A DNA stretch of 64,000 bases. Source: Eledone cirrhosa. Lineage: Eukaryota. A program made the translations under genes and the position numbers. The stretch is taken from assembly GCA_964016885.1 (NCBI GenBank), contig OZ024740.1:363692001-363756000 (forward strand), read 5' to 3'. The notes under the pieces are model-generated. The model saw only the letters and a list, made by a program, of their open reading frames with translations. It made no database searches and was not told the origin of the DNA. This document shows positions 1 to 64,000 of the stretch, one piece after another. The first letter of the stretch is position 1. Each line of letters begins with the position of its first letter.

Positions 1-511
1 AGTTTTTTTTTCCTTTTCTCTTTTCTTTTTTATTACTTGTCTCACTCGCTTTTTTTGATGACCAACTGTAAGGAGTACTCGATACTTCCTCGAGTCTGTT
101 GTGGCTTACTAGCTCTATACGGATGTTTAAATTGAATTAATAAATATATATATATATGTATGTGTGTGTGCGTGTGTGTGTGTGTGTAAGCAAAAGGAAA
201 CTGAAATAACAAAGTAGACACAGTACAATGAAGAAATATATTAGTTTTACGCTTGATATAATAGGAGAAGTGTCTTAACATTTTGGACTAATCCTTAAAG
301 AAATGTGTATGTGTGTGTGTATGTGTGTGTGTGGTATAATAATTAGTAACTTTGATTTCTTGAGTCTGAGCTCCAGTCATAACAGCTAATATTCTAATAC
401 ACTCTCAATCGACCTATCAAATTCACTTTCTCTTGCATTAAACCAATCAACTTTCTTGATACATTACTACCACCTTAGCTTTGCTATCACTTAAGCTAAT
501 GCTATGAGATC

Positions 512-815
512 AACACCAACATTCCATTGTAGTGTGTAATTAAGGGACCTTCTATCACCAATGTTAATGCCGTGTTTAATCTTGCCTCAAACATGTTCAA
601 AGGGCAACATCATCATTCCTTGTTATAGTGTGTAATTGAGGGACACACTATCACCTATGGTGAGGTCATGAGTGTCTTGGTTTGCCTAAGAACATTTTGG
701 AAATATCAACATTCCCTGTTGTAGTGTACATCGAGGGACCAGCTTTCACCTGCAGTAGTGCCATAAGTATCTTGGCTTGCCTCAAACATGTTTAGAAGGC
801 TACACCAACATTCCA
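512..815. repeat. Diverged ~97-bp tandem repeat, 3 copies
   Basis: Recurring CAACATTCC..TAGTGT..GAGGGAC..TATCACC..TTGCCTCAAACA; a related inverted copy lies near 16140-16300. Confidence 0.7.
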
Positions 816-9817: not shown

Positions 9818-11441
9818 GTTAGTTACACACTTTTATATTTTAGCTTGTACTGTTACTTATATCGTTCTTCCCTCAGGATGGTTTCAGCCAGCTTCCTCCA
9901 TATCATAAACAAAACTCACCCATGCATAGCAATCACAGGTGTCTAACACAACTATTGTCAGCTAGTCACAGTTGCAACAGTGGTCACCTTATATAGTTCA
10001 AGATCCATCTTGATTGTGCCAACTATACACATTGTCATTTATGTTATTATGGGTGGCAGGGTATGTAATAAACTGAGTAGGAGTTGTTTGAGGCAATCAA
10101 TTTGATAGCAACGATGAATTTTGGAGTTTGGCACACTTTTATACTTTATCAGTATACAACAATTCTCTCTGTGGGTCCTAACTCCCAATGGAGTTGTAGG
10201 AAAACAATTGTTATATATGGAGTTTGAACAGAGTTCATTTCTTCCAGAAAAAATAGACTTAGAAAATGGAAGAATTAATCTCTGTACTGAACTGGTACTT
10301 TATTTATTGACCCCCTATATGATGAAAAGCAAAGATAACCTAGGCAAGATTTGAACTACGAGTACAGGGAGTTGGAACAAATGCTGCAAAACATTTTAGC
10401 CAATGTTCTAAAGGCTCTGCCAATTTGCTGCCATACAACAAATACACAAGTTAAAATGAAATTGCAAGGAAAATATATTCTAGATATATAAACTGTATCA
10501 TCATCATTATCATCATTATCATCATCATTTAACATCTGTTCATCCATGCTAACATGGGTTGGAAAGGTCATCACAGACGAAATCAGTACTTAATTGGCGT
10601 TACTGACTTCCAGTACTTTATAGAGTGTACTGTTTGCATTTTAGTCTGGCACCAGCACTAGAGAGGTCGTCATATGCTTAGCCAGACTGGAGAGCTATCT
10701 CTGCTCAATATTGTCTCTGTTCGATTGTCAACCATTCTACAGATTGAACCAGGTGCACTCCATCATAGGATTAAGTTTATCATATCATATAATAGATTGT
10801 CCTTTGTTTGTATCAAGTACATTATATTGCTTTTGACAAAGTTCTCAAAAGTAAGAGACTGTATAAAATATATATAATATTTACAAATTATCCTTCAGCT
10901 ATCAATTTCATATATACAAAGAAATAGAGTCATATATGTAGGCATATACAATATTTATATATAATAAACAAACCTATTCTTGTTGTGAGTATTTTAAGCT
11001 GTGATCAGCTACCTCTATAACCATATGACAATGTCAAATACATGCATTTTGAGATTGTTAATCCATTATCAGTGATGCTTAGTTACCCAGTTAAGGAAGC
11101 TAATGCCTTTTATTTATAGATCTTATAAATAATATATTTTTGATGATAGCTTATTTCCGTACAGTCTGAGTTTGATGATTAATTATTTAGCAGTAGCATA
11201 ATATATTATTAATTAGCAGTAGAACTAACAGGCATATATGCTACCATATACATCTCTATTCTGAAATGAAATATATATACATATGTATTAGAATTGGTTC
11301 TCTGAAATAGCGATGTATACATGAATGTATATATAGTATATTTGGCAATATACCGTATGTTTAATTAAAAACATTTAGAAGATCATACGCTATCAGTTTT
11401 AAAGTAGTGACTATGTCACTTACTTGTTTTCGGCAAAAGAA

Positions 11442-11502
11442 GGGAGAGAAGCTGACAGTCTGTTTCACACTGGTTCGCGTTCATCAGAGCCATGTACTCC
11501 CC
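11442..11502 (-). ncRNA. Type I minimal hammerhead ribozyme motif (family H1, intact)
   Basis: Minus strand reads GGGGAGUACAU-GGCU-CUGAUGA-ACGC-GAACCA-GUGU-GAAA-CAG-A-CUG-UC-AGCU-UCUCUCCC: full core, stems I, II and III, GUC triplet. Confidence 0.8.
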
Positions 11503-11885
11503 TGCTTTCACCAAAAATTTTAGAAGCTGGATTCTTATAGAATTCCAGTAATAATCAGGAGCTGATTATGCAGAGCGATTGCCAGTCCGTGGCTCTGATG
11601 AATGCCAACCAGTGTGAAACAGACTGTCTCCCTTATTTCGCTGAAAAGAAATAAGTGACATAGCCACTACTTTAAAACCGATAGCGTATGGTCTTCTAAA
11701 TGTTTTAATTAAACATACGATATATTGCCAATATATTACACAAACATTCATGTATACATCGCTATTTCAGAGCACCAATCTTAATACCTAATTTTTGCTG
11801 GACCGGCAATTTCTCTGCATAATCAGCTTCTGATTATTACTGGAATTCTATAAGCATCCAACTTCTATAATTTTTGTCGAAAGCA

Positions 11886-11947
11886 GGGGAGTACATGGCT
11901 CTGATGAACCCAAACCAGCGTGAAACAGACTGTCAGCTTCTATCCCT
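11886..11947 (+). ncRNA. Type I hammerhead motif (family H1; C-C mismatch in stem II)
   Basis: GGCU-CUGAUGA-ACCC-AAACCA-GCGU-GAAA-CAGACUG-UC-AGCU. A further copy 306 nt upstream (11591-11632) lacks the 3' arm of stem I. Confidence 0.72.
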
Positions 11948-12857
11948 TCTTTCGCCGGAAAGAAGTAAGTGACATAGTCACTACTTTAAAACTGATAGCG
12001 TATGGTCTTCTAAATGTTTTTAATTAAACATACGGTATATTGCCAAATATATTACACAAATATTCATATATATATATATAAATATGAAAGTGTATCTTCG
12101 TGGTTAGAGAGTTGGATGTGAGTTTCATTCTTGGACTGAGTGATGTGTTGTTTCCTTGAGTAAGACACTTTATTTCACATTGCTCTACTTTATTCAGCTG
12201 TAGAAATGAGTTGCATCATAACTGGTGCCAAACTGTATTGGCCTTTGCCTTTCCTTTGAATGATATTGGTGGTGTGGAGAGAGGAAGCTAGTATGCATGG
12301 GCGACTTGTGGTCTTCCACAAAAACACCTTGCCTAGGGTTGTTCCTTGGAGGGGAAGTTTCTAGGTACAAATCCCATGGTCATTCATGACCGAAGAGGGT
12401 TTTATATATATCTTGTTTACACTCTTAATTTTCGATTATTTTTCTTTACTTGGACTACCTTTATTTTTGTATCTCCTATGTGATCCTGTCTCTAATTTTG
12501 TACCACTGAAGAAAGGCTAAAGCCCAGCACGTCCAACTTTCTTTCCCCTTTTCCATATAAAACATGAAACTAATAAGACGTTTTGTACCTCTGTTTGTTG
12601 TCTCCTTGAACTTTATATATATATATATATTTATATATATATAGAGAGAGAGATATGTGTATCCCGAGTTCAATCAGGGGTAGCCACAGTAAGTAAGGTA
12701 CTCAATACAGAGTAGAGTATAGAATATTTTATATAGAAATGGCTTCTACAGGACTAGAACTGTTTCATTCGAAGGAAATCATCAGGAAAGCTTTCCTATG
12801 AAGCCGTTTCTATATTAAACAATATATATATATGTTATATAAATCTATCTTTCACAG

Positions 12858-40718: not shown

Positions 40719-41509
40719 CATTTTTTTATCATATAGGAATGACTAATTTGTATTTGTTGAACTATATTACCTTAAGTATTATTTCACACTATTACAGCAT
40801 ACTAGATTGTTAAAGATTTAATATAAACAGTTTAAAATAACTTAGTTTTGTGATATTATTTGAAATGAATTACTGTATATACAAGAATATAAGTCACTAT
40901 CCCTATTTTTTGGCAGTGAAATGGGCAAAAATCCAAACCCTGCTTATGAGCCATGGCAGCTAATCAACACATTACAGCAATGTTTAGAAATTCTCATGAA
41001 TAGAGGAAATAAAATAATAAGTGTCGTTTAGAGTATAGTTTTTGTTTCCACTACAGAATAGAGATATATTTTTTAGTTTTAGGCATTATTTTAGAAAATA
41101 TAGATTTACTGTAATGGAGATCATTAAACGCACTAGGGGGAGATAGAAATGAACAGGGAATAGTTGAAAGCGATCAACTAAGAGAACACTGTATAAGGAT
41201 TCAGAGTAGAAGGGGGAGGAAGAAACAGCAAGCGAAAGAGCGGAGAGGCAGAGTGAGAAAAAGAGAGGCGGAGGGTGAGAGAAATAAAACAAAGCAAGAT
41301 TGAAAGAAAAGGTTTAGGTATGAATTTATGTATAGTATTTATGTATGTATCTATACATACATTCATACATACATGGCTATTTCAGAGCACTGATACTAAT
41401 TCCTAATTTTTGCTGGACCAGAAACTGCTCTGTTTATTCAGCTCTTATACATCACTGGAATTTTATAAGAATCCAGCTTCTATAAGTCTTGGCAGAAGTA
41501 AAAGGATAT

Positions 41510-41554
41510 GCAATCTTGATAACCACTAACGAGCGAGAAACAGCTGTTGGTTGC
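41510..41554 (+). ncRNA. Hammerhead motif with U3-A8 core variant (diverged family H1 copy)
   Basis: GCAAUC-UUGAUAA-CCACUAACGAGCGA-GAAA-CAGCUG-UU-GGUUGC: 6-bp stem I, palindromic stem III, weak stem II. Lies at the homologous position of a unit related to 11590-12068. Confidence 0.6.
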
Positions 41555-41676
41555 TTCCCTTTGTTTTTGCCGAGACTAAGTAAGTGACATAGTCACTACT
41601 TTAAAACTCATAGCGAATGGTATTCAAAATGTTTTTTATTAAACATACAGTATATTATCAAATATACTATACATAC

Positions 41677-41749
<73 letters not shown>

Positions 41750-54397: not shown

Positions 54398-55284
54398 TAT
54401 GTTTACCATATATACTCATGTAAAGAAACATACCATATATACTTGTGTAAAGAAATATACCATATATACACATGTAAAGAAATATACCATATAAACATGT
54501 AAAAGTTGGATGGTTTTATAGGTATAACTTATGTGGTTGACTATTACATAGTTACTAAGAGCTGAAATTCACACTACAATCCAAAATACTGTACCAATAA
54601 GTAGAAGATTGAATAGACTCTAGATGAAGCAAAAGTGAAACAATAAATTACAATAATAATACCAATATTTTTACATATCAAAACACACATCTTCCTACCA
54701 GAATACATAAATATGGTTACATAGCTCTTACAAATATTTCCCTGGATGTACACTAGAACATAATAATATATGAAAATTAATTTCCTCAACATAACACAGC
54801 AGCAACAGAAGCATTTCTGAATTGGGGGCCAAATTCAGTTGTAGTGATTATTTTAACTGTTATAAAATATCAACCAAGATATAAAAAAACTTGTAGTACA
54901 TATACAAATAGATGTGTGTTTTGGGTAGTTTGGGGAGAAATATATAATTTTTGGCGGGGGTGACTCCCACCTAAGTTCCACTGCCTCTGTAACATTTGAT
55001 GTTCAGAACAATATCTAGATTCAACAATATTGACCTGATTTCCATTGGGCCAGGCTTTATACAAGTATATATGGCTAAAACTATTCTTCTTGTAAATTAG
55101 GATTTTTCATCAGAGTATCTTATAAGATATGTTTAAAAGGAGTCACTGTGTAATATCTCAACCTGTATGTATTTTATACCACTAAGTAAATACACACACA
55201 CATATATATATATGTTATATATATATATATATAAGTATGTATACGTACATACATATATGTATACAGACGTACAGTAGTATGTAT

Positions 55285-55975
55285 ATCATCATCATCATCA
55301 TCATCATCAGGTTTAGCGTCCGTGTTCCACGCTTGCATGGGTTTGGACGGGGGTTTTCCCACTTGAGGCAAGAGTGGTTGTCTTGCTCGCATAGGACTGT
55401 CTGGCGGGTTTTCTACAGTTGGATGCCCTTCCTAACACCAACCACATTTACAGTGTGGGGCTGGGAGGTTTTTACCGTGTTGCCTACACGGCCACATTAC
55501 AGCGTGGACTGTCTGGCGGGTTTTCTACAGCTGGATGCCCTTCCTAACACCAACCACATTTACAGTGTGGGGCTGGGAGGTTTTTACTGTGTTGCCTACA
55601 CGGCCACATTTACAGCGTGGACTGTGTGTTTTTTTGTTGTGACACCTACACGATCTCATTTGTTTCGGCCTGGATGTTGTGGGACCAACATAACTTTACA
55701 TTAAAAGGGGCGGTGTGGATGGGGTGGGGGTGGTGGGATGGGGGGGTGTTTTGATAGAGATGCCTACTGACTGTAGTAGGTTTTTACTTTGTATTTAGGT
55801 AAGGCGGGTCTTCTCTATTACTGAGTACCGCCAAAGGTCTCGGTCCAGTGACATTGTCTTGGAGAGGTGTAAGCGTGTGAGGTCGGAATTTATCAGCTCG
55901 TCCCATGTTTTTCTGGGTCTGCCTACTCCGTGGCTACCGTCTATCTTTATTGCCCTGCACTTTGTTATACAGCTG
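55285..55975 (-). mobile_element. RTE LINE 3' fragment (family B) with an internal ~110-bp UTR duplication, inserted in the H3 hammerhead element
   Basis: GRPRKTWDEL..DRDLWR; UTR block repeated at about 55395-55510 and 55506-55625. Confidence 0.88.
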
Positions 55976-56128
55976 TCGTATATATACATACATGCACACA
56001 TATATATATGTACGTATGGATTCACCGAACATTTATTATAATGCTCGGTGTGTTTGTAAACAAACATCCCGAATTAAGCCGTACAGTGTCTAGCAACCAT
56101 CGTTGCTCATTTATTCAACACTGACAAA

Positions 56129-56183
56129 GGAACGCTGTACTAGTTTCAAGCTTATTAGCTATCGTCAGCAACGTATACCTTCC
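56129..56183 (-). ncRNA. Type I minimal hammerhead ribozyme motif (family H3, intact)
   Basis: Minus strand reads GGAAGGUAU-ACGUUG-CUGACGA-U-AGCU-AAUA-AGCU-U-GAAA-CUAG-UA-CAGCGU-UCC, with palindromic ACUAGU stem III. Mutated plus-strand copies lie at 56426-56468 and 56856-56898. Confidence 0.8.
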
Positions 56184-57167
56184 TGCCAGATGATTGAACG
56201 TCTGAACGTATATACTTTCCTTATGCATATTAACGGCTGAGCAGCCTAATTTGCATATCCAGTGAGTTAATTGGCCGGGGTACCGAAAATGAAACGGCTG
56301 TTACTTAAATATAAGTATGTATACATATATACATATATGTATACAGACGTACAGTAGTATGTATATATATATATATACATACATGCACACATTTATATAC
56401 GTTCAATCATCTGGCATGAAGGTATACGTTGCTGACAATAGCTAATAAGCTTGAAACTAGTACAGCGTTCCTTTGTCAGTGTTGAATAAATGAGCAACAA
56501 GGGTTGCTAGACACTGTATGGCTTAATTCGGGATGTTTGTTTACAAACATACCGAGCATTATAATAAATGTTCGGTGAATCCATACGTACATATATATAT
56601 GTGTGCATGTATGTATATATATATACATACTACTGTACATCTGTATACATATATGTATGTACGTATACATACTTATATTTAAGCAACAGCCGTACTAAGA
56701 GTGAGAAATGAAATTTCGTTTCATTTTTTCCATTTATCGTTTTCGGTGCACCCGGCCGATTAACCCACTCGATATGCAAATTCGGCTGCTCAGCCGTTAA
56801 TATGCATAAGGAAAATATATACTTTCAGACGTTCAATCATCTGGCAGGAAGGTATACGTTGCTGACGATAGCTAATAAGCTTGAACCTAGTACAGCATTC
56901 CTTTGTCAGTGTTGAACAAATGAGCAACGATGGTTGCTAGACACTGTACGGCTTAATTCGGGATGTTTGTTTGTTTACAAACATAGCGAGCATTATAATA
57001 AATGTTCGGTGAATCCATACGTACATATATATGTATGTGTGCATGTATGTATATATATATACATACTACTGTACGTCTGTATACATATATGTATATACGT
57101 ATACATACTTATATTTAAGTAACAGCCGTACTAAGAGTGAGAAATGAAATTTTGTTTCATTTTTTCC

Positions 57168-57233
<66 letters not shown>

Positions 57234-57319
57234 GTATATATATATTATGTATGTATATATATATATATAAATTAAGTATGTGTATATATATATTATGTAT
57301 GTATATATATATATATTGT

Positions 57320-57780
57320 ATGTCATCACCATCATCATCATCACTGTTTTACGGCCATTCTTCTACACTAGCATGGGTTAGACGGGGTGTTCTGTTGTGG
57401 GCCGTGCCAGGTCAGTTGCCATGCCTTGCTCGTATGGAACTGATTTTGCCTTGATTTCTACAGCTGGATGCCCTTCCTAACACAAATCTCATTTACAGTG
57501 AGTACTGGGTACTTTTTTACCGAGGCGCCTACACGACCACTTTACAGTGTGGACTGGGTGCTTTTTGTCGTGACACCTACATGACCACTTTGCAGTGGGA
57601 GGGGGCGGTGGCATACTTTTTATATGCTTCAGCTTCGGCTTGTACCCGTGGGAAGTCGGGTCTTCTGTATTACTGCGTAACATCAGAGGTATCGGTCCTG
57701 TGTCATCACCTTTGAGAGGTGCAATTGGGCAAGGTCAGTTTTATTACCTCATTCCTGGTCTTCATTGGTCTCCTCCTCTC
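57320..57780 (-). mobile_element. RTE family A-like 3' end
   Basis: Reverse complement resembles the 3' coding end and UTR of 2319-3749; (CAT)n tail. Confidence 0.75.
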
Positions 57781-57965
57781 CATATATAAATATACATATA
57801 TATAATATGTATATGTATATGTATATATATATATATGTATATTTTATGTATATGTATATATGTATACATATATATATAATATGTATATGTATATATATAT
57901 ATATGTGTGTGTGTGTGCATATATATGTATATACATATATGTTTATCTCTATGTATAAATAAATA

Positions 57966-58022
<57 letters not shown>

Positions 58023-58174
58023 ACATATACATGTGTGTGTGTGTGTGTGTAAGTATGAAAGAGGGAAGGGAGAGAGAGAAAGAGTATCGTAATAGTACAA
58101 ATATTCTGGATTTTATTGTTTTCTGAACACAGAATATTAATAAGAATTTTTTATCAATCTTTGTATTCTCTCAG

Positions 58175-58315
58175 CTGCCTGTACCTTTGAAGAAGAACAT
58201 TTATGTCATTGGAAAAATGCTGATAGTAATATTCATGATTGGACAGTTCACAGTGGAGGAACTGCTTCTTCAAACACAGGGCCAATTGGGGACCACACAA
58301 CAACCGATAAAGCAG
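58175..58315 (+). CDS. MAM gene exon 26 (MAM9 N-terminus; phase 1-1); the gene continues beyond the window
   Basis: tctcag|CT...GCAG|gtaag; ACTFEEEHLCHWKN..HDW..GGTASSNTGPIGDHT. Confidence 0.92.
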
Positions 58316-59289
58316 GTAAGTTTGCTCTACAACTTTTCTTGACAATTTGACTGTAACCATCCTTCATGCTACAATACTAAGCTTTTTATACCACATGAAA
58401 TAATATTAGCAAAATATTCTTGAAAAGTACAAAACAATACTATGATAGCATCACATTAAAAGTCTTTACTCTAATATTGCATAATTAGAAAAAAAGCTAT
58501 CCACTAATAAAAATACTGTATACATATACATTTATCTATATGCATATATACACATATGTATATAAATGTATGGATATATATGTCTACATATATTTGATAC
58601 AATTTCAAGTGATCAGCAGTCTTTAGACTCACCAGATCAATGAAACAATTGTTAATACTGCAAATAAAACCCTTTTTGTACAACCAACCATGTTATTCTT
58701 CACTCTTTCACTATATATATACTATATATATAATTTTATAGATATATATATTTATATACATAGATATAATATAGATATATATATATCATCATCACTGGTA
58801 TACATCTACTTTTCCACGGTAGCATGGGTTAGACGAGTTGTCCTTTTGTGGGCAATGCTAGGTCAGATGACCATGTCAGGCTCATACAGGACTGATCATT
58901 TCATTTCATTTCATTTCATTTCATTTTACGTCCGCTTTTCCCTGCTTGTATTTATATCATATATACATATATATATATAATATTTCATAGAGCCAGATGT
59001 CACAGTTCTGTGTGATCACTTTAGTGAGGTGTAATTGAACAAAGTCAGCTCTTATTACCTCACCCCAGGTCTTTCTAGGCCTGCCCATTCTATGGGTAGC
59101 ATCAACTTTGAGCGCTCTGCACCTTTTTATACAGCTGTCATCCTTCATATGCATCACATGTCCATACCAATGCAATCTTCTCGTTTGCACTCAGCATCTG
59201 ATCCCTCTTATGTCTAATTTCTTGTGCAATGCATTTATGCTTTGCTTTTCATGTATGTTGGTATTGAACATCCACCAAAGTATATATAC

Positions 59290-59338
<49 letters not shown>

Positions 59339-59353
59339 GTATATAAATATATA

Positions 59354-59810
59354 TATATAGAATTCACAAGAATCAAAGCTATATTAAAAGCATTTATTCA
59401 CTTACAATTGTTTCATCCAAACCTAGGCTTGGAGTCTTCGGAGCATTTTTCAATGTTTGTACACATAATTGACCTCCTTTCCAACGCAAGAGACATACAG
59501 ATACATATGTATATATTGATGTACAGTGGAGTGACATATATTATATTATATTATTTCTGTATAGCAATATATACATATATACATATTCTGCTATACAGAA
59601 ATAATATAATATAATATAATATAATATATGTCACTCCACTGTACATCAATATATACATATGTATCTGTATGTCTCTTGCGTTGGAAAGGAGGTCAATTAT
59701 GTGTACAAACATTGAAAAATGCTCCGAAGACTCCAAGCCTAGGTTTGGATGAAACAATTGTAAGTGAATAAATGCTTTGAACATAGCTTTGATTCTTGTG
59801 AATTCTATAT
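59354..59810. repeat. Near-perfect palindrome (arms ~210 bp, spacer ~23 nt) carrying hammerhead-like motifs
   Basis: 59354-59565 is the reverse complement of 59589-59810 with very few mismatches. Confidence 0.9.
59711..59780 (+). ncRNA. Hammerhead-like motif with CCGAAGA core (family H4); mirror copy at 59383-59454 on the minus strand
   Basis: UGCU-CCGAAGA-C-UCCAAGC-CUAG-GUUUGGA-U-GAAA-CAAUUG-UA-AGUG: strong stem II, palindromic stem III, weak stem I, U4C core change. Confidence 0.55.
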
Positions 59811-59851
59811 AACTGCTCTGTAGAACAACTGATGTTATTACATTGAGCTAT

Positions 59852-60041
59852 GGATAGGGCGGTGGATTGGCAGTATCGGTAGAGGGTCGGAGGCCATGCT
59901 TTCCAGCATAGTTACGTCCCTTTACGATCTGAGTTCAAATCCCGCCGAGGTTGACTTTGCCTTTCATCCTTACGGGGTCGATAAAATAAAGTACCAGTAA
60001 TGCACTGGATAATTGCTGGCCTTGTGCCTAAAGTAGAAACA
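59852..60041 (+). mobile_element. tRNA-derived SINE (family S1) with 18-bp TSD
   Basis: Near-identical to 23051-23238; TSD GTTATTACATTGAGCTAT at 59834-59851 and 60042-60059. Confidence 0.87.
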
Positions 60042-60179
60042 GTTATTACATTGAGCTATTTATCTTACTGGTAATAAGGTAGTAATAAATTACTGACCTT
60101 CACTGTTTAGGGTTTAAAATATATATAAATATGAAAAGTTTTAGTATATACATAACCATAAATAGTATCCTTAATATTA

Positions 60180-61130
<951 letters not shown>

Positions 61131-61730
61131 ACTCTGGTGGATGTTCAATACCAACATACATGAAAAGCAAAGCATAAATGCATTGCACAAGAAATTAGAC
61201 ATAAGAGGGATCAAATGTTGAGTGCAAACGAGAAGATTGCATTGGTATGGACATGTGATGCATATGAAGGATGACAGCTGTATAAAAAGGTGCAGAGCAC
61301 TCAAAGTTGATGCTAGCCATAGAATGGGCAGGCCTAGAAAGACCTGGGGTGAGGTAATAAGAGCTGACTTTGTTCAATTACACCTCACTAAAGTGATCAC
61401 ACAGAACTGTGACATCTGGCTCTATGAAATATTACAGAAGACAAAAGTGAGTGCCCAGTCAGTCCTCTAAAGTGATCGTTTAGGTGTCACAACAAAAAAC
61501 ACCCAGTCCACACTGTAAACGGGTTGTGTATGTGTCACAACAAAAAGCACCCAGTCCATGCTGTAAATGTGGTTGGCATTAGGAAGGACATCCAGGTTTA
61601 GAAACCAAGCGAAAATCAGTTCTGTATGAGCAAATCACAGTTCCCTGACTTGATCTCACACAAAGCGACAGCCTGTCTAACCCATGCTAGTGTGGAAGAA
61701 TGGATGTAAAACGGTGATGATGATGATAAT
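61131..61730 (+). mobile_element. RTE LINE 3' fragment (family A-like), partly duplicated in inverted orientation at 58975-59280
   Basis: RRLHWYGHVMHMKDDSCIKRC..GRPRKTW occurs in both ORF 61222-61470 (+) and ORF 58957-59190 (-). Confidence 0.88.
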
Positions 61731-62022
61731 GACATATACATGTATATGCACATATGGAAAAGTACTTGTATGTACTTATGTCCATATACACATGCATCTA
61801 TATGCATTTACATTTATATTAATATATATATGCACACATACACGTATATATATATATATATATATGTGCACATACACGTACATACATACATATATATATA
61901 TGAGTTCAGATCTAGCTGTCGAAATGGTTGGAACTCAGCCGTCGAGGTAACATCTTATTAGAAATATACATAAAGAAAATGCCATTGAATACTGAACAGA
62001 TGTTTCTATATATATATATATA

Positions 62023-62352
62023 TCATCATCATCATCATTTTACGTCCGCTTTTCCCTGCTTGCAAGGGTGGGACGGGAACTGATTCTGGCTTGATTTCTA
62101 CAGCTGGATGCCCTTCCTAACACCAACCTCATTTACAGTGAGTGATGGGTGCTTTTTTGCCGTGGCACCTCCACGACCACTTTGCAGTGGAATGATAGGG
62201 ACTGAGATCCCTATCATCTCATTTCTACAGCTGAGTAAACTGAAGCAATGTGAAATAAAGTGTCTTGCTCAAGGAAACAACACATCACCTGGTCTGAGAA
62301 TTGAACTCACAACCTTTCGATTGCAAGGCCAATGCTCTAACCACTAAGCCAT
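62023..62352 (-). mobile_element. tRNA-derived SINE (family S2) with RTE-derived body and tail
   Basis: A box TGGCTTAGTGG, B box GAGTTCAATTC, central CCTTGAGCAAGACACTTTATTTCAC, RTE UTR block, (TGA)n tail. Truncated twin at about 48913-49240; related heads near 1385, 6888, 12100, 14590-14725, 33600-33715, 34075, 47340-47445 and 53330. Confidence 0.82.
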
Positions 62353-62789
62353 GATCCCCCATGGCTCACAAAATGTCTCACCTCTTTCTGTTTAAATCAG
62401 TTGTAACTGGCCACTCATACTGATGTTAAGGTATTGTTCTCAAGATAGATACCATCAAAATCTCATAGATTCGATATTATATGTGATAATTATGTATGTT
62501 AAAGTGTTTACTACCAAAATACAATAGTAAATATATAGTAATGTGAATGCTAAAGGGATAAAGGACCAGTCTTGACTTAACTCTGCCTTCCTAACAACAA
62601 TTCATCTCCGACTGATCCTTTAAGACCTCCACAGGAACGCTCCCTAGATAATGGGCCTCTAAACCCCAAAATATTTGGGATAATTAAATTTGTTCATGTA
62701 AAATTCTATCGCCATCTCAGCACCTCTTTAATTTTCTAATGCATTGCATGGCCTCCAAAATTATTCAAATTTATATTTCCTATTCAACA

Positions 62790-62816
62790 ATGCTATATAT
62801 ATATATGTATGTATAC

Positions 62817-62859
<43 letters not shown>

Positions 62860-62967
62860 TACACATACATATTCCCACTTGATATATATATATATGTATT
62901 TATATATGTATATGTATACATATGTATATATATATATGTATACATATGTATATATATATATGTATAC

Positions 62968-63049
<82 letters not shown>

Positions 63050-63251
63050 GTGTGTGTATGTATACATATGTATATATATATACATATGTATATATATATA
63101 TATGTGTATATATATATATATATACGTAATATATATATATATATATGTATACATATATGTGTGTATATATATATATATACATATATATATATGTATGTAT
63201 ATATATATGTATATATATATATGTATGTATATATATATATATACAGAAACA

Positions 63252-63305
<54 letters not shown>

Positions 63306-63340
63306 CAGAAACATCTGTATGTATATATATATATATATCA
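62790..63340. repeat. Long (TA)n/(TATG)-type tract
   Basis: Read directly from the sequence. Confidence 0.95.
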
Positions 63341-64000
63341 CATCCACTGATATGGATTCTGAACACATGCACACGCTTAGGTCACATTAAGGTCAACTGC
63401 AGGAATTGGTGATAAGTTACAAAAAAGTGTGATGATCAATGACCTGGAAGTTGGCTTACCATGAAATTAGTCCGAAGAATAAAACCCACATCGTATGTTG
63501 ACGAATATTCGTACTCCCGGCATGTTTATTGTAACATGCCATCTTCGAGAGTAGAGTTTATTTTGTTGATATTTCAAGGTGTTGGATCGTGGGAAGATTA
63601 ACACGAATTAAGATGATGTAACTTCTCCCCCATTATTGACACTTTGCAACAGTGAACGTTACAAGGCCCTCTTTAGGGCCAACACCTCTGATTGTTTATC
63701 TGACTTATTACGGTGAGTTTTCTCAGGTTATGTCTACTATAGGGGGAAAACGGGATTGTTTTATTGAATTGCTTCAGTCATTCGAAGGGCTTTACAAATG
63801 GTGATATACAGGGTGCTTGAACAGTACTCGGTTATAGTTTCTTCAATAATTGCGATGACTTCCTCAATTGTTCTGAGTTTGTTCTTGAGTGCTAAGGCAT
63901 TAAGTTCGCTATTCTTATACATAAGTTTGTTGAATAAGTTTGATACTCTTCGAACTCAAACTTCCCTGGCTTATTCACTCTGAATGAAGAAAGCTGGATG

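Follow-up and report, generated by a model that had tools for sequence, protein, structure and literature searches.

An inherited U3-A8 hammerhead core in a subfamily of probable non-LTR retrozymes from Eledone cirrhosa

The window analysed here is a continuous stretch of 64,000 nucleotides from Eledone cirrhosa (assembly GCA_964016885.1, contig OZ024740.1, positions 363,692,001 to 363,756,000 of the forward strand). Positions are counted from its first letter, and those preceded by an L number refer to loci fetched from the genome. At 41351-41679 lies a single unit of a non-coding repeat (Table 1), with a GC content of 33% and with stop-free runs of at most 52 codons, the longest run having been measured in the tripled unit. 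A first-pass annotation of this DNA had described a 13-nt repeat at both ends of the unit and a period of 316 nt, and both are found in our analysis. The repeat, CTATACATACATT, occurs exactly twice within the 64-kb window, where 0.01 matches are expected by chance, and none of 100 shuffles reached two. We rejected it as a target-site duplication, since tandem copies have these bases where one unit joins the next; the element is therefore simply 1.04 units long. The possible inverted fragment upstream of it sits where members of the family often have an inverted, 5'-truncated neighbour.

Table 1. Features of the retrozyme-like repeat in the window
Feature	Position	Strand	Remarks
Subfamily B copy of the probable non-LTR retrozyme, a 316-nt hammerhead-bearing non-coding repeat	41351..41679	+	329 nt = 1.04 units
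13-nt CTATACATACATT, first copy	41351..41363	+	with 41667-41679 marks the 316-nt period of the unit
13-nt CTATACATACATT, second copy	41667..41679	+	at the common 3' end of the family; family form ...CATACATTCAT then (TA)n
Entire hammerhead arm	41500..41562	+	outer helix 41500-41506 with 41556-41562, small internal loop, helices I, II and III, core
Helix I, 5' strand GCAAUC	41510..41515	+	pairs with GGUUGC
Core box UUGAUAA	41516..41522	+	U3 = 41516, A8 = 41521; compensated form of the C3-G8 tertiary pair
Helix II and loop 2, CCACUAACGAGCGA	41523..41536	+	
GAAA box	41537..41540	+	
8-nt palindrome ACAGCUGU = helix III	41540..41547	+	expected to pair between two copies
U17	41548	+	predicted cut between 41548 and 41549; GUU here, GUC in the subfamily
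Helix I, 3' strand GGUUGC	41549..41554	+	
(TA)n microsatellite	41680..41746	.	directly 3' of the copy; usual flank of the family
Possible 21-nt inverted fragment of the unit's end	41315..41335	-	19/21 bases match; weak, low-complexity sequence
Two head-to-head subfamily A insertions	11282..12068		minus 11282-11588; plus 11584-12068 (1.5 units)
Three CUGAUGA...GAAAC hammerheads	11462-11487 (-), 11595-11620 (+), 11901-11926 (+)		

All positions of the type I hammerhead core (C3 U4 G5 A6 N7 G8 A9, G12 A13 A14, A15.1-U16.1 and H17) were found at 41516-41548, with the published variant U3-A8 standing for C3-G8 and with U as H17. As read at first pass, the core is UUGAUAA and stem I is GCAAUC/GGUUGC (41510-41554), where the reference copies at 11282-12068 have CUGAUGA, GGCU/AGCU and ACAGACUGU. 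Helix I has six pairs including one U-G wobble, and helix III can be drawn either as two pairs with a 4-nt loop in a monomer or as an 8-nt palindrome between copies. In helix II three of the five column pairs are kept, with mismatches at C10.1/A11.1 and A10.3/C11.3, while the subfamily majority keeps four of five. The damage to stem II reported earlier is thus real, in that A10.3 faces C11.3 where the subfamily has a G-C pair.

The homology to another copy in the window, also proposed earlier, was recovered with 78% identity between 41351-41679 and 11735-12068 over 337 alignment columns. The two insertions of this reference locus meet at about 11584-11588 and form a long inverted repeat. An Rfam match to MIR2646 at 11408-11666 (57.9 bits, cut-off 245) is this inverted pair of A copies. 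In a scan of the window at gathering thresholds no Rfam hammerhead model reaches its cut-off, the sole hammerhead match being a weak one of HH9 to the A copy at 11883-11956 (15.1 bits, cut-off 52, E = 1.2). Permissive Rfam matches, of which there are dozens at 55000-63400 and elsewhere (mir-297, mir-3149, mir-1277, mir-466), lie on (TA)n/(TG)n-type microsatellites, and we regard the sub-threshold miRNA-family matches in the window as low-complexity artefacts and not as miRNA genes. Another hammerhead-like motif, CUGAUGA-UUUCCUUCGAAU-GAAAC, is present on the minus strand at 12745-12815, bracketed by GGCUUC...GAAGCC and adjoining a (TA)n tract. It has a close relative at L079 (approximately 488-560, plus strand) and probably represents another repeat family of the same genome.

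A DNA search of the 3.0-Gb genome with the copy at 41351-41679 returned 3344 first-look candidates, 40 of which were scored, and the full-length matches listed are 82-92% identical to the query. With an A-type copy as query there were 2808 first-look candidates, and the matches listed are 85-95% identical. The copies sort cleanly, those of type A being about 91% identical to the A query and 78% to the copy at 41351-41679, and those of type B the reverse. A third type, C, was first met in L039 and a fourth, D, came out of the pattern census described below. The family therefore has at least four subfamilies, of which only A has C3-G8, and B, C and D have U3-A8. In an unrooted tree of 94 units B and C are each recovered as a clade (support 100%), with long branches of 0.17 and 0.21. 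Subfamily A is star-like with D near it, and the split (B,D)|(A,C) is weak (support 63). The description of the copy as a diverged monomer is accordingly correct as to its being a single unit of 1.04 repeats, and incorrect as to its being a lone divergent one, since it belongs to a separate subfamily.

Insertions of the family end 3' at two fixed points, either ...CATTCAT or, about 50 nt further, ...CTAAT, followed by (TA)n in most loci. The 5' ends vary among the fetched loci, many of which adjoin a 5'-truncated copy inverted head to head. In most A and B loci there are 1.0-1.7 units, and C is also found in arrays of at least 10 units (L071, L072). Penelope-like insertions have been described as having partial tandems, an inverted 5'-truncated copy, a tail of 30-40 bp and, in Naiads, a (TA)n bias (the relevant parts of Craig et al. 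2021, PMC8557442). The family resembles them in its variable 5' truncation, its partial tandems, the adjacent inverted 5'-truncated copy, a strong (TA)n bias and a short tail, here of about 50 nt, that may be present at one end, and these Penelope-type traits are present across the fetched loci. At 41351-41679 itself the (TA)n flank is the only clear one, the inverted fragment matching at 19 of 21 bases being weak. Copy ends, inverted neighbours and flanks fit a Penelope-type insertion of a non-LTR retrozyme, although, unlike Penelope-like elements, the units encode neither a reverse transcriptase nor an endonuclease. In L039:759-2353 a C-type and a B-type composite insertion lie tail to tail with one (TA)n tract between them, and such repeated insertion into one microsatellite fits a strong (TA)n target preference. 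In L052:1870-2489, beside a B copy, the last 36 nt of the unit (positions 294-329 of the 41351-41679 copy) form a 17-copy tandem array, a minisatellite born from the AT-rich end of the element.

For an autonomous partner we looked among GIY-YIG loci, of which the genome has 10,597 first-look candidates. The best 30 of these (L093-L122) have no similarity to the units, except for an A copy nested in L094. Thirteen of the 30 contain UUGAUAA-UGCAUAAAAAUGCU-GAAACCGGUA, a minimal hammerhead-like motif with a U3-A8 core and the palindrome ACCGGU, which begins some 700 nt past the point where the endonuclease match starts (for example at approximately 2201-2255 of L094). Others among the 30 have CUGAUGA/CUGACGA...GAAAGAAC motifs.

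The 3-8 pair, for which Martick and Scott reportedly provided the crystal-structure basis in 2006, was followed by pattern searches of the genome in which the flanks were fixed and positions 3 and 8 were left free. With the B context this gave 105 matches, against two for a control pattern, and the 100 listed read U..A in 94 cases, G..A in two, A..G in two, C..A in one and C..G in one. The C context gave 454 matches (94 U..A and six others in the 100 listed), and the A/D context 494, where the 100 listed comprise 72 C..G, 12 U..A, six U..G, four C..A and six others. All 12 listed U..A copies of the A/D context were fetched. They share A at 11.1, AGCUGU as helix III and AGCCAU as the 3' strand of helix I, and these linked differences place them in subfamily D. 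Five single mutants of the A/D context were also fetched (three of the four C3-A8 and two of the six U3-G8 copies) and all are ordinary decayed A copies. This suggests that there is no subfamily with a mixed 3-8 state and that the single changes are decay. L084, a C3-G8 match of the B context, has no similarity to any unit and was taken as a chance match, the control pattern having two matches.

It could be supposed that U3 and A8 both arose by chance in a single old and decayed copy, as both changes are transitions and the copy at 41351-41679 has other decay mutations. The census refutes this, and we give it practically no probability. Both changes are present in 94 of the 100 listed copies of the same context, subfamilies C and D have them too, and the single-change states are rare and occur in otherwise ordinary copies. 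The two bases are thus neither independent of each other nor private to this copy, and the suggestion that U3-A8 marks a subfamily is borne out. We conclude that the copy at 41351-41679 is a member of subfamily B, from which it has inherited its U3-A8 core. On the unrooted tree a single coordinated event, which may have run in either direction, is sufficient to explain the 3-8 swap. Since only one event is needed, the weight of the evidence comes from the absence of mixed-state subfamilies and from the many compensated pairs in the stems.

These pairs were analysed in a test set of 104 hammerhead segments (36 A, 34 B, 24 C and 10 D; 101 distinct rows). The alignment leaves out two truncated segments (L001:1353-1394 and L087:651-691) and L084-L092, which had been picked by core state. 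The D copies L073-L083 had also been picked by core state but were kept, and duplicates (L047, L063, L070 and part of L072) were removed by identical sequence. The structure tested comprises the outer helix, helices I, II and III and the 3-8 pair, and in the control versions the 3' partner was slid by 1-3 columns. In the 104 segments 82.7% of the cells are paired, against 36.8-50.1% with the slid partner, cells not being independent events. The covariation score is 0.403, compared with at most 0.203 in the slid versions, and 18 of the 23 pairs have changed on both sides, which agrees with the covariation across the family that had been predicted. The 3-8 pair itself reads UA in 62 of these hammerheads, CG in 33, UG in two and other in four, the UA count being inflated by the 10 D rows picked by core state.

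As cell counts do not represent independent events, we also compared the majority sequences of A, D, C, B1 and B2. Of the 23 pairs, 12 have been fully exchanged for another standard pair somewhere among these five sequences. Helix columns differ more often than the rest of the unit between A and B1 (23/46 against 29/261, p = 9e-9), between A and D (8/46 against 9/260, p = 0.001), between A and C (16/46 against 40/264, p = 0.003) and between B1 and B2 (5/46 against 4/262, p = 0.005). Differences between majority sequences are 3-9 times as frequent in the 46 helix columns as in the remainder of the unit, and pairing is kept. B1 and B2 are distinguished by two fully compensated pairs, 10.4-11.4 (C-G or U-A) and 15.3-16.3 (G-C or A-U). 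The nine unpaired core positions (U4, G5, A6, U7, A9, G12, A13, A14 and C17) are identical in all seven majority-sequence comparisons, the absence of differences at these nine positions being in itself not significant (p = 0.12 against a background of 61 variable columns in 256).

A and B diverge in a block, strongly at alignment columns 150-240 and little on either side of them. This raises the question of whether recombination or template switching brought in the B arm from a different hammerhead-bearing element, such as the end of a Penelope-like element. The 13 GIY-YIG loci with UUGAUAA...GAAACCGGUA indicate that U3-A8 cores exist in Penelope-like elements of this genome. However, 20 of the 23 helix differences between A and B1 are transitions (as counted from the majority-sequence table; outside the arm there are 18 transitions to 11 transversions), where an unrelated module would differ mostly by transversions. 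The loops and bulge, in which an unrelated module would also be expected to differ, have stayed similar (3 of 12 A-B1 loop columns differ), and the units, one nested insertion aside, have no similarity to the 30 GIY-YIG loci. The preponderance of transitions and the similar loops favour stepwise change via wobble pairs over replacement by a foreign module, and we consider the latter very unlikely.

Kept pairing might also reflect selection for a hairpin arm, and not for catalysis. The B-type hammerhead, and that of D, would then be a non-cutting structural relic, the folded arm or other parts of the unit being recognised by the retrotransposition machinery. The majority sequences are unpaired at 10.1/11.1 in B (C/A) and D (A/A) and paired in A (A-U) and C (G-C), and Rfam gave no hammerhead match for 41340-41680 at E values up to 10. 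Naiad elements multiply without canonical hammerheads, and the role of the hammerhead in these elements is described as unclear (relevant parts of PMC8557442). A natural monomer from cut site to cut site (L041:1383-1699) folds at -67 kcal/mol (z = -2.8 against 100 shuffles), and its predicted fold has a long helix closed by both halves of the hammerhead arm, which makes a purely structural role conceivable. A mere hairpin, however, requires neither the nine unpaired core bases that are identical in all five majority sequences nor a compensated 3-8 pair as the sole core change. The palindromic helix III and the GUC site are kept as well, and ribozymes with U3-A8 are reported to be active in vitro (parts of Perreault et al. 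2011, PMC3088659). A structural relic thus seems to us an unlikely explanation.

Our results support the alternative that the hammerhead fold has been selected in the source elements, and not in this insert. The earlier claim that the fold was under selection therefore holds for the source lineages only, as copies of one subfamily have not preserved the hammerhead region better than other parts of the unit. Divergence from the majority of the own subfamily in the arm and elsewhere is 4.0% and 2.8% in A, 4.3% and 3.1% in B2, and 8.0% and 5.8% in C, values that point to neutral decay of the inserted copies. The contrast between lineages suggests either diversifying selection on the arm or strong constraint on the remaining 250 nt. 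It is possible, if doubtful, that the fast turnover of the helices is diversifying selection which gives each lineage a private pairing address, such that the RNA of rival lineages is neither processed nor poisoned. We base this speculation on helix I and helix III forming between molecules in the two-copy active form, and on two fully compensated helix pairs separating sister lineages that differ by 1.5% elsewhere. If it is true, the switch between C3-G8 and U3-A8 would be part of the same turnover. That the source lineages change fastest in the ribozyme arm, and not elsewhere in the element, is a pointer on selection. Passages of Cervera and de la Pena (2014, PMC4209133) note such variability in Penelope hammerheads and do not quantify it against the rest of the element. 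We regard the fast compensated turnover of the arm as the one lead that deserves to be followed.

Compared with the B1 majority, the copy at 41351-41679 has 15 differences, of which six are CpG-type. The arm accounts for five: 41499, 41500 and 41503 belong to the outer helix, and the other two are 41525 (G10.3 to A) and 41548 (C17 to U). At 41525 a CpG-type loss private to this copy has broken a helix II pair, whereas the C10.1/A11.1 mismatch is common to all B copies; the change at the cut site, from GUC to GUU, is also a CpG-type loss. With one hammerhead that has no partner, a broken helix II pair, GUU for GUC and a weakened outer helix, this decayed copy is likely to be inactive and to have been drifting since its insertion. 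The model of the hammerhead as a dimer is said to go back to Forster et al. in 1988. When two natural hammerhead segments of B2 or of C were co-folded, a double hammerhead with extended helix III was predicted, with gains of -11.3 and -10.3 kcal/mol, respectively. For the hammerhead of 41351-41679 the gain was only -5.5 and helices I and II were not formed. The B and D ribozymes in general may be slow or dead, as 10.1/11.1 is unpaired in them and G10.1-C11.1 is called highly conserved in a part of PMC4209133. Among the sequencing runs listed for a near-majority B2 locus there was none of RNA. The three that were listed (one sample, as contigs) were considered at L037:1300-2100 and rejected as RNA evidence. 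Their depth is like that of genomic DNA, low in the unique left flank and very high in the repeat, and they carry nothing on RNA ends or circles.

Metazoan non-LTR retrozymes were defined as a class by Cervera and de la Pena (2020, PMC7229834), and it has been argued that those of animals derive from Penelope-like elements (Li, Clavereau and Pollet 2026, preprint, 10.64898/2026.07.22.740005). The class comprises units of approximately 170-400 bp with a type I hammerhead, low GC, no ORF and no LTR, and the period of 316 nt and GC of 0.33 place our family within it. As in the retrozymes covered by the relevant parts of these papers, the unit of about 300 bp lacks an open reading frame, a copy may consist of one unit or form a long tandem array (such as those of C in L071 and L072), and the architecture of the copies resembles that of Penelope-like elements. 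Helix III is a short palindrome, a trait shared with the salamander motifs that function as dimers. The family differs in that three of its four subfamilies have U3-A8 in place of C3-G8, the term 'U3-A8' occurring zero times in the main text of PMC7229834, and in that 10.1/11.1 is unpaired in B and D. Unlike tandem retrozymes, the single unit at 41351-41679 cannot release a monomer by itself. We consider it very probable that this copy is a decayed B-subfamily insertion of the animal non-LTR-retrozyme kind, with an inherited U3-A8 core. For its source elements we infer a cycle that begins with multimeric transcripts, which two hammerhead motifs, held together by the palindromic helix III, would cut into 316-nt monomers. 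A host ligase would close these monomers into circles, and a Penelope-like element would supply the reverse transcriptase and endonuclease with which the RNA is copied back into (TA)n sites.

The swap of C3-G8 is less novel than the first-pass annotation assumed. Positions 3 and 8 pair and covary to U3-A8 in several natural hammerheads, and variants of this kind were already active in vitro, as stated in parts of Perreault et al. (2011, PMC3088659). The U3-A8 core is also reported, with approximately 1,300 matches, in a Schistosoma mansoni Penelope-like element in PMC4209133, passages of which stress families that are full of compensatory changes. A full-text literature search for the pair names returned no further natural U3-A8 cases beyond those of these two papers. 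The phenomenon is thus already published, and the locus in the window is an ordinary and probably dead copy. The same compensated swap is seen in the published cases as in our family, but in the relevant passages of PMC3088659 and PMC4209133 these are minimal hammerheads in Penelope-like terminal repeats, or scattered examples in other genomes, whereas here the swap separates sister subfamilies of one retrozyme family in one genome. The two states can therefore be set side by side in almost the same background, as only 9 of 260 sites outside the arm distinguish A from D. The family provides a natural test set of four related hammerheads on nearly the same 316-nt background, one with C3-G8 and three with U3-A8. 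Two of the three also have no 10.1-11.1 pair, and this is material for measuring the cost of the core swap in its native context.

Approximately 35 nt 3' of the hammerhead, at 41584-41596, there is a perfect hairpin, GUGAC-AUA-GUCAC, which is present at the same place in A, B and D units, within the part of the unit that is best conserved (A and B1 differ there in 0-2 of every 29 columns). This hairpin could be a recognition element. The C units have GUGAGACUGUCAC in its place.
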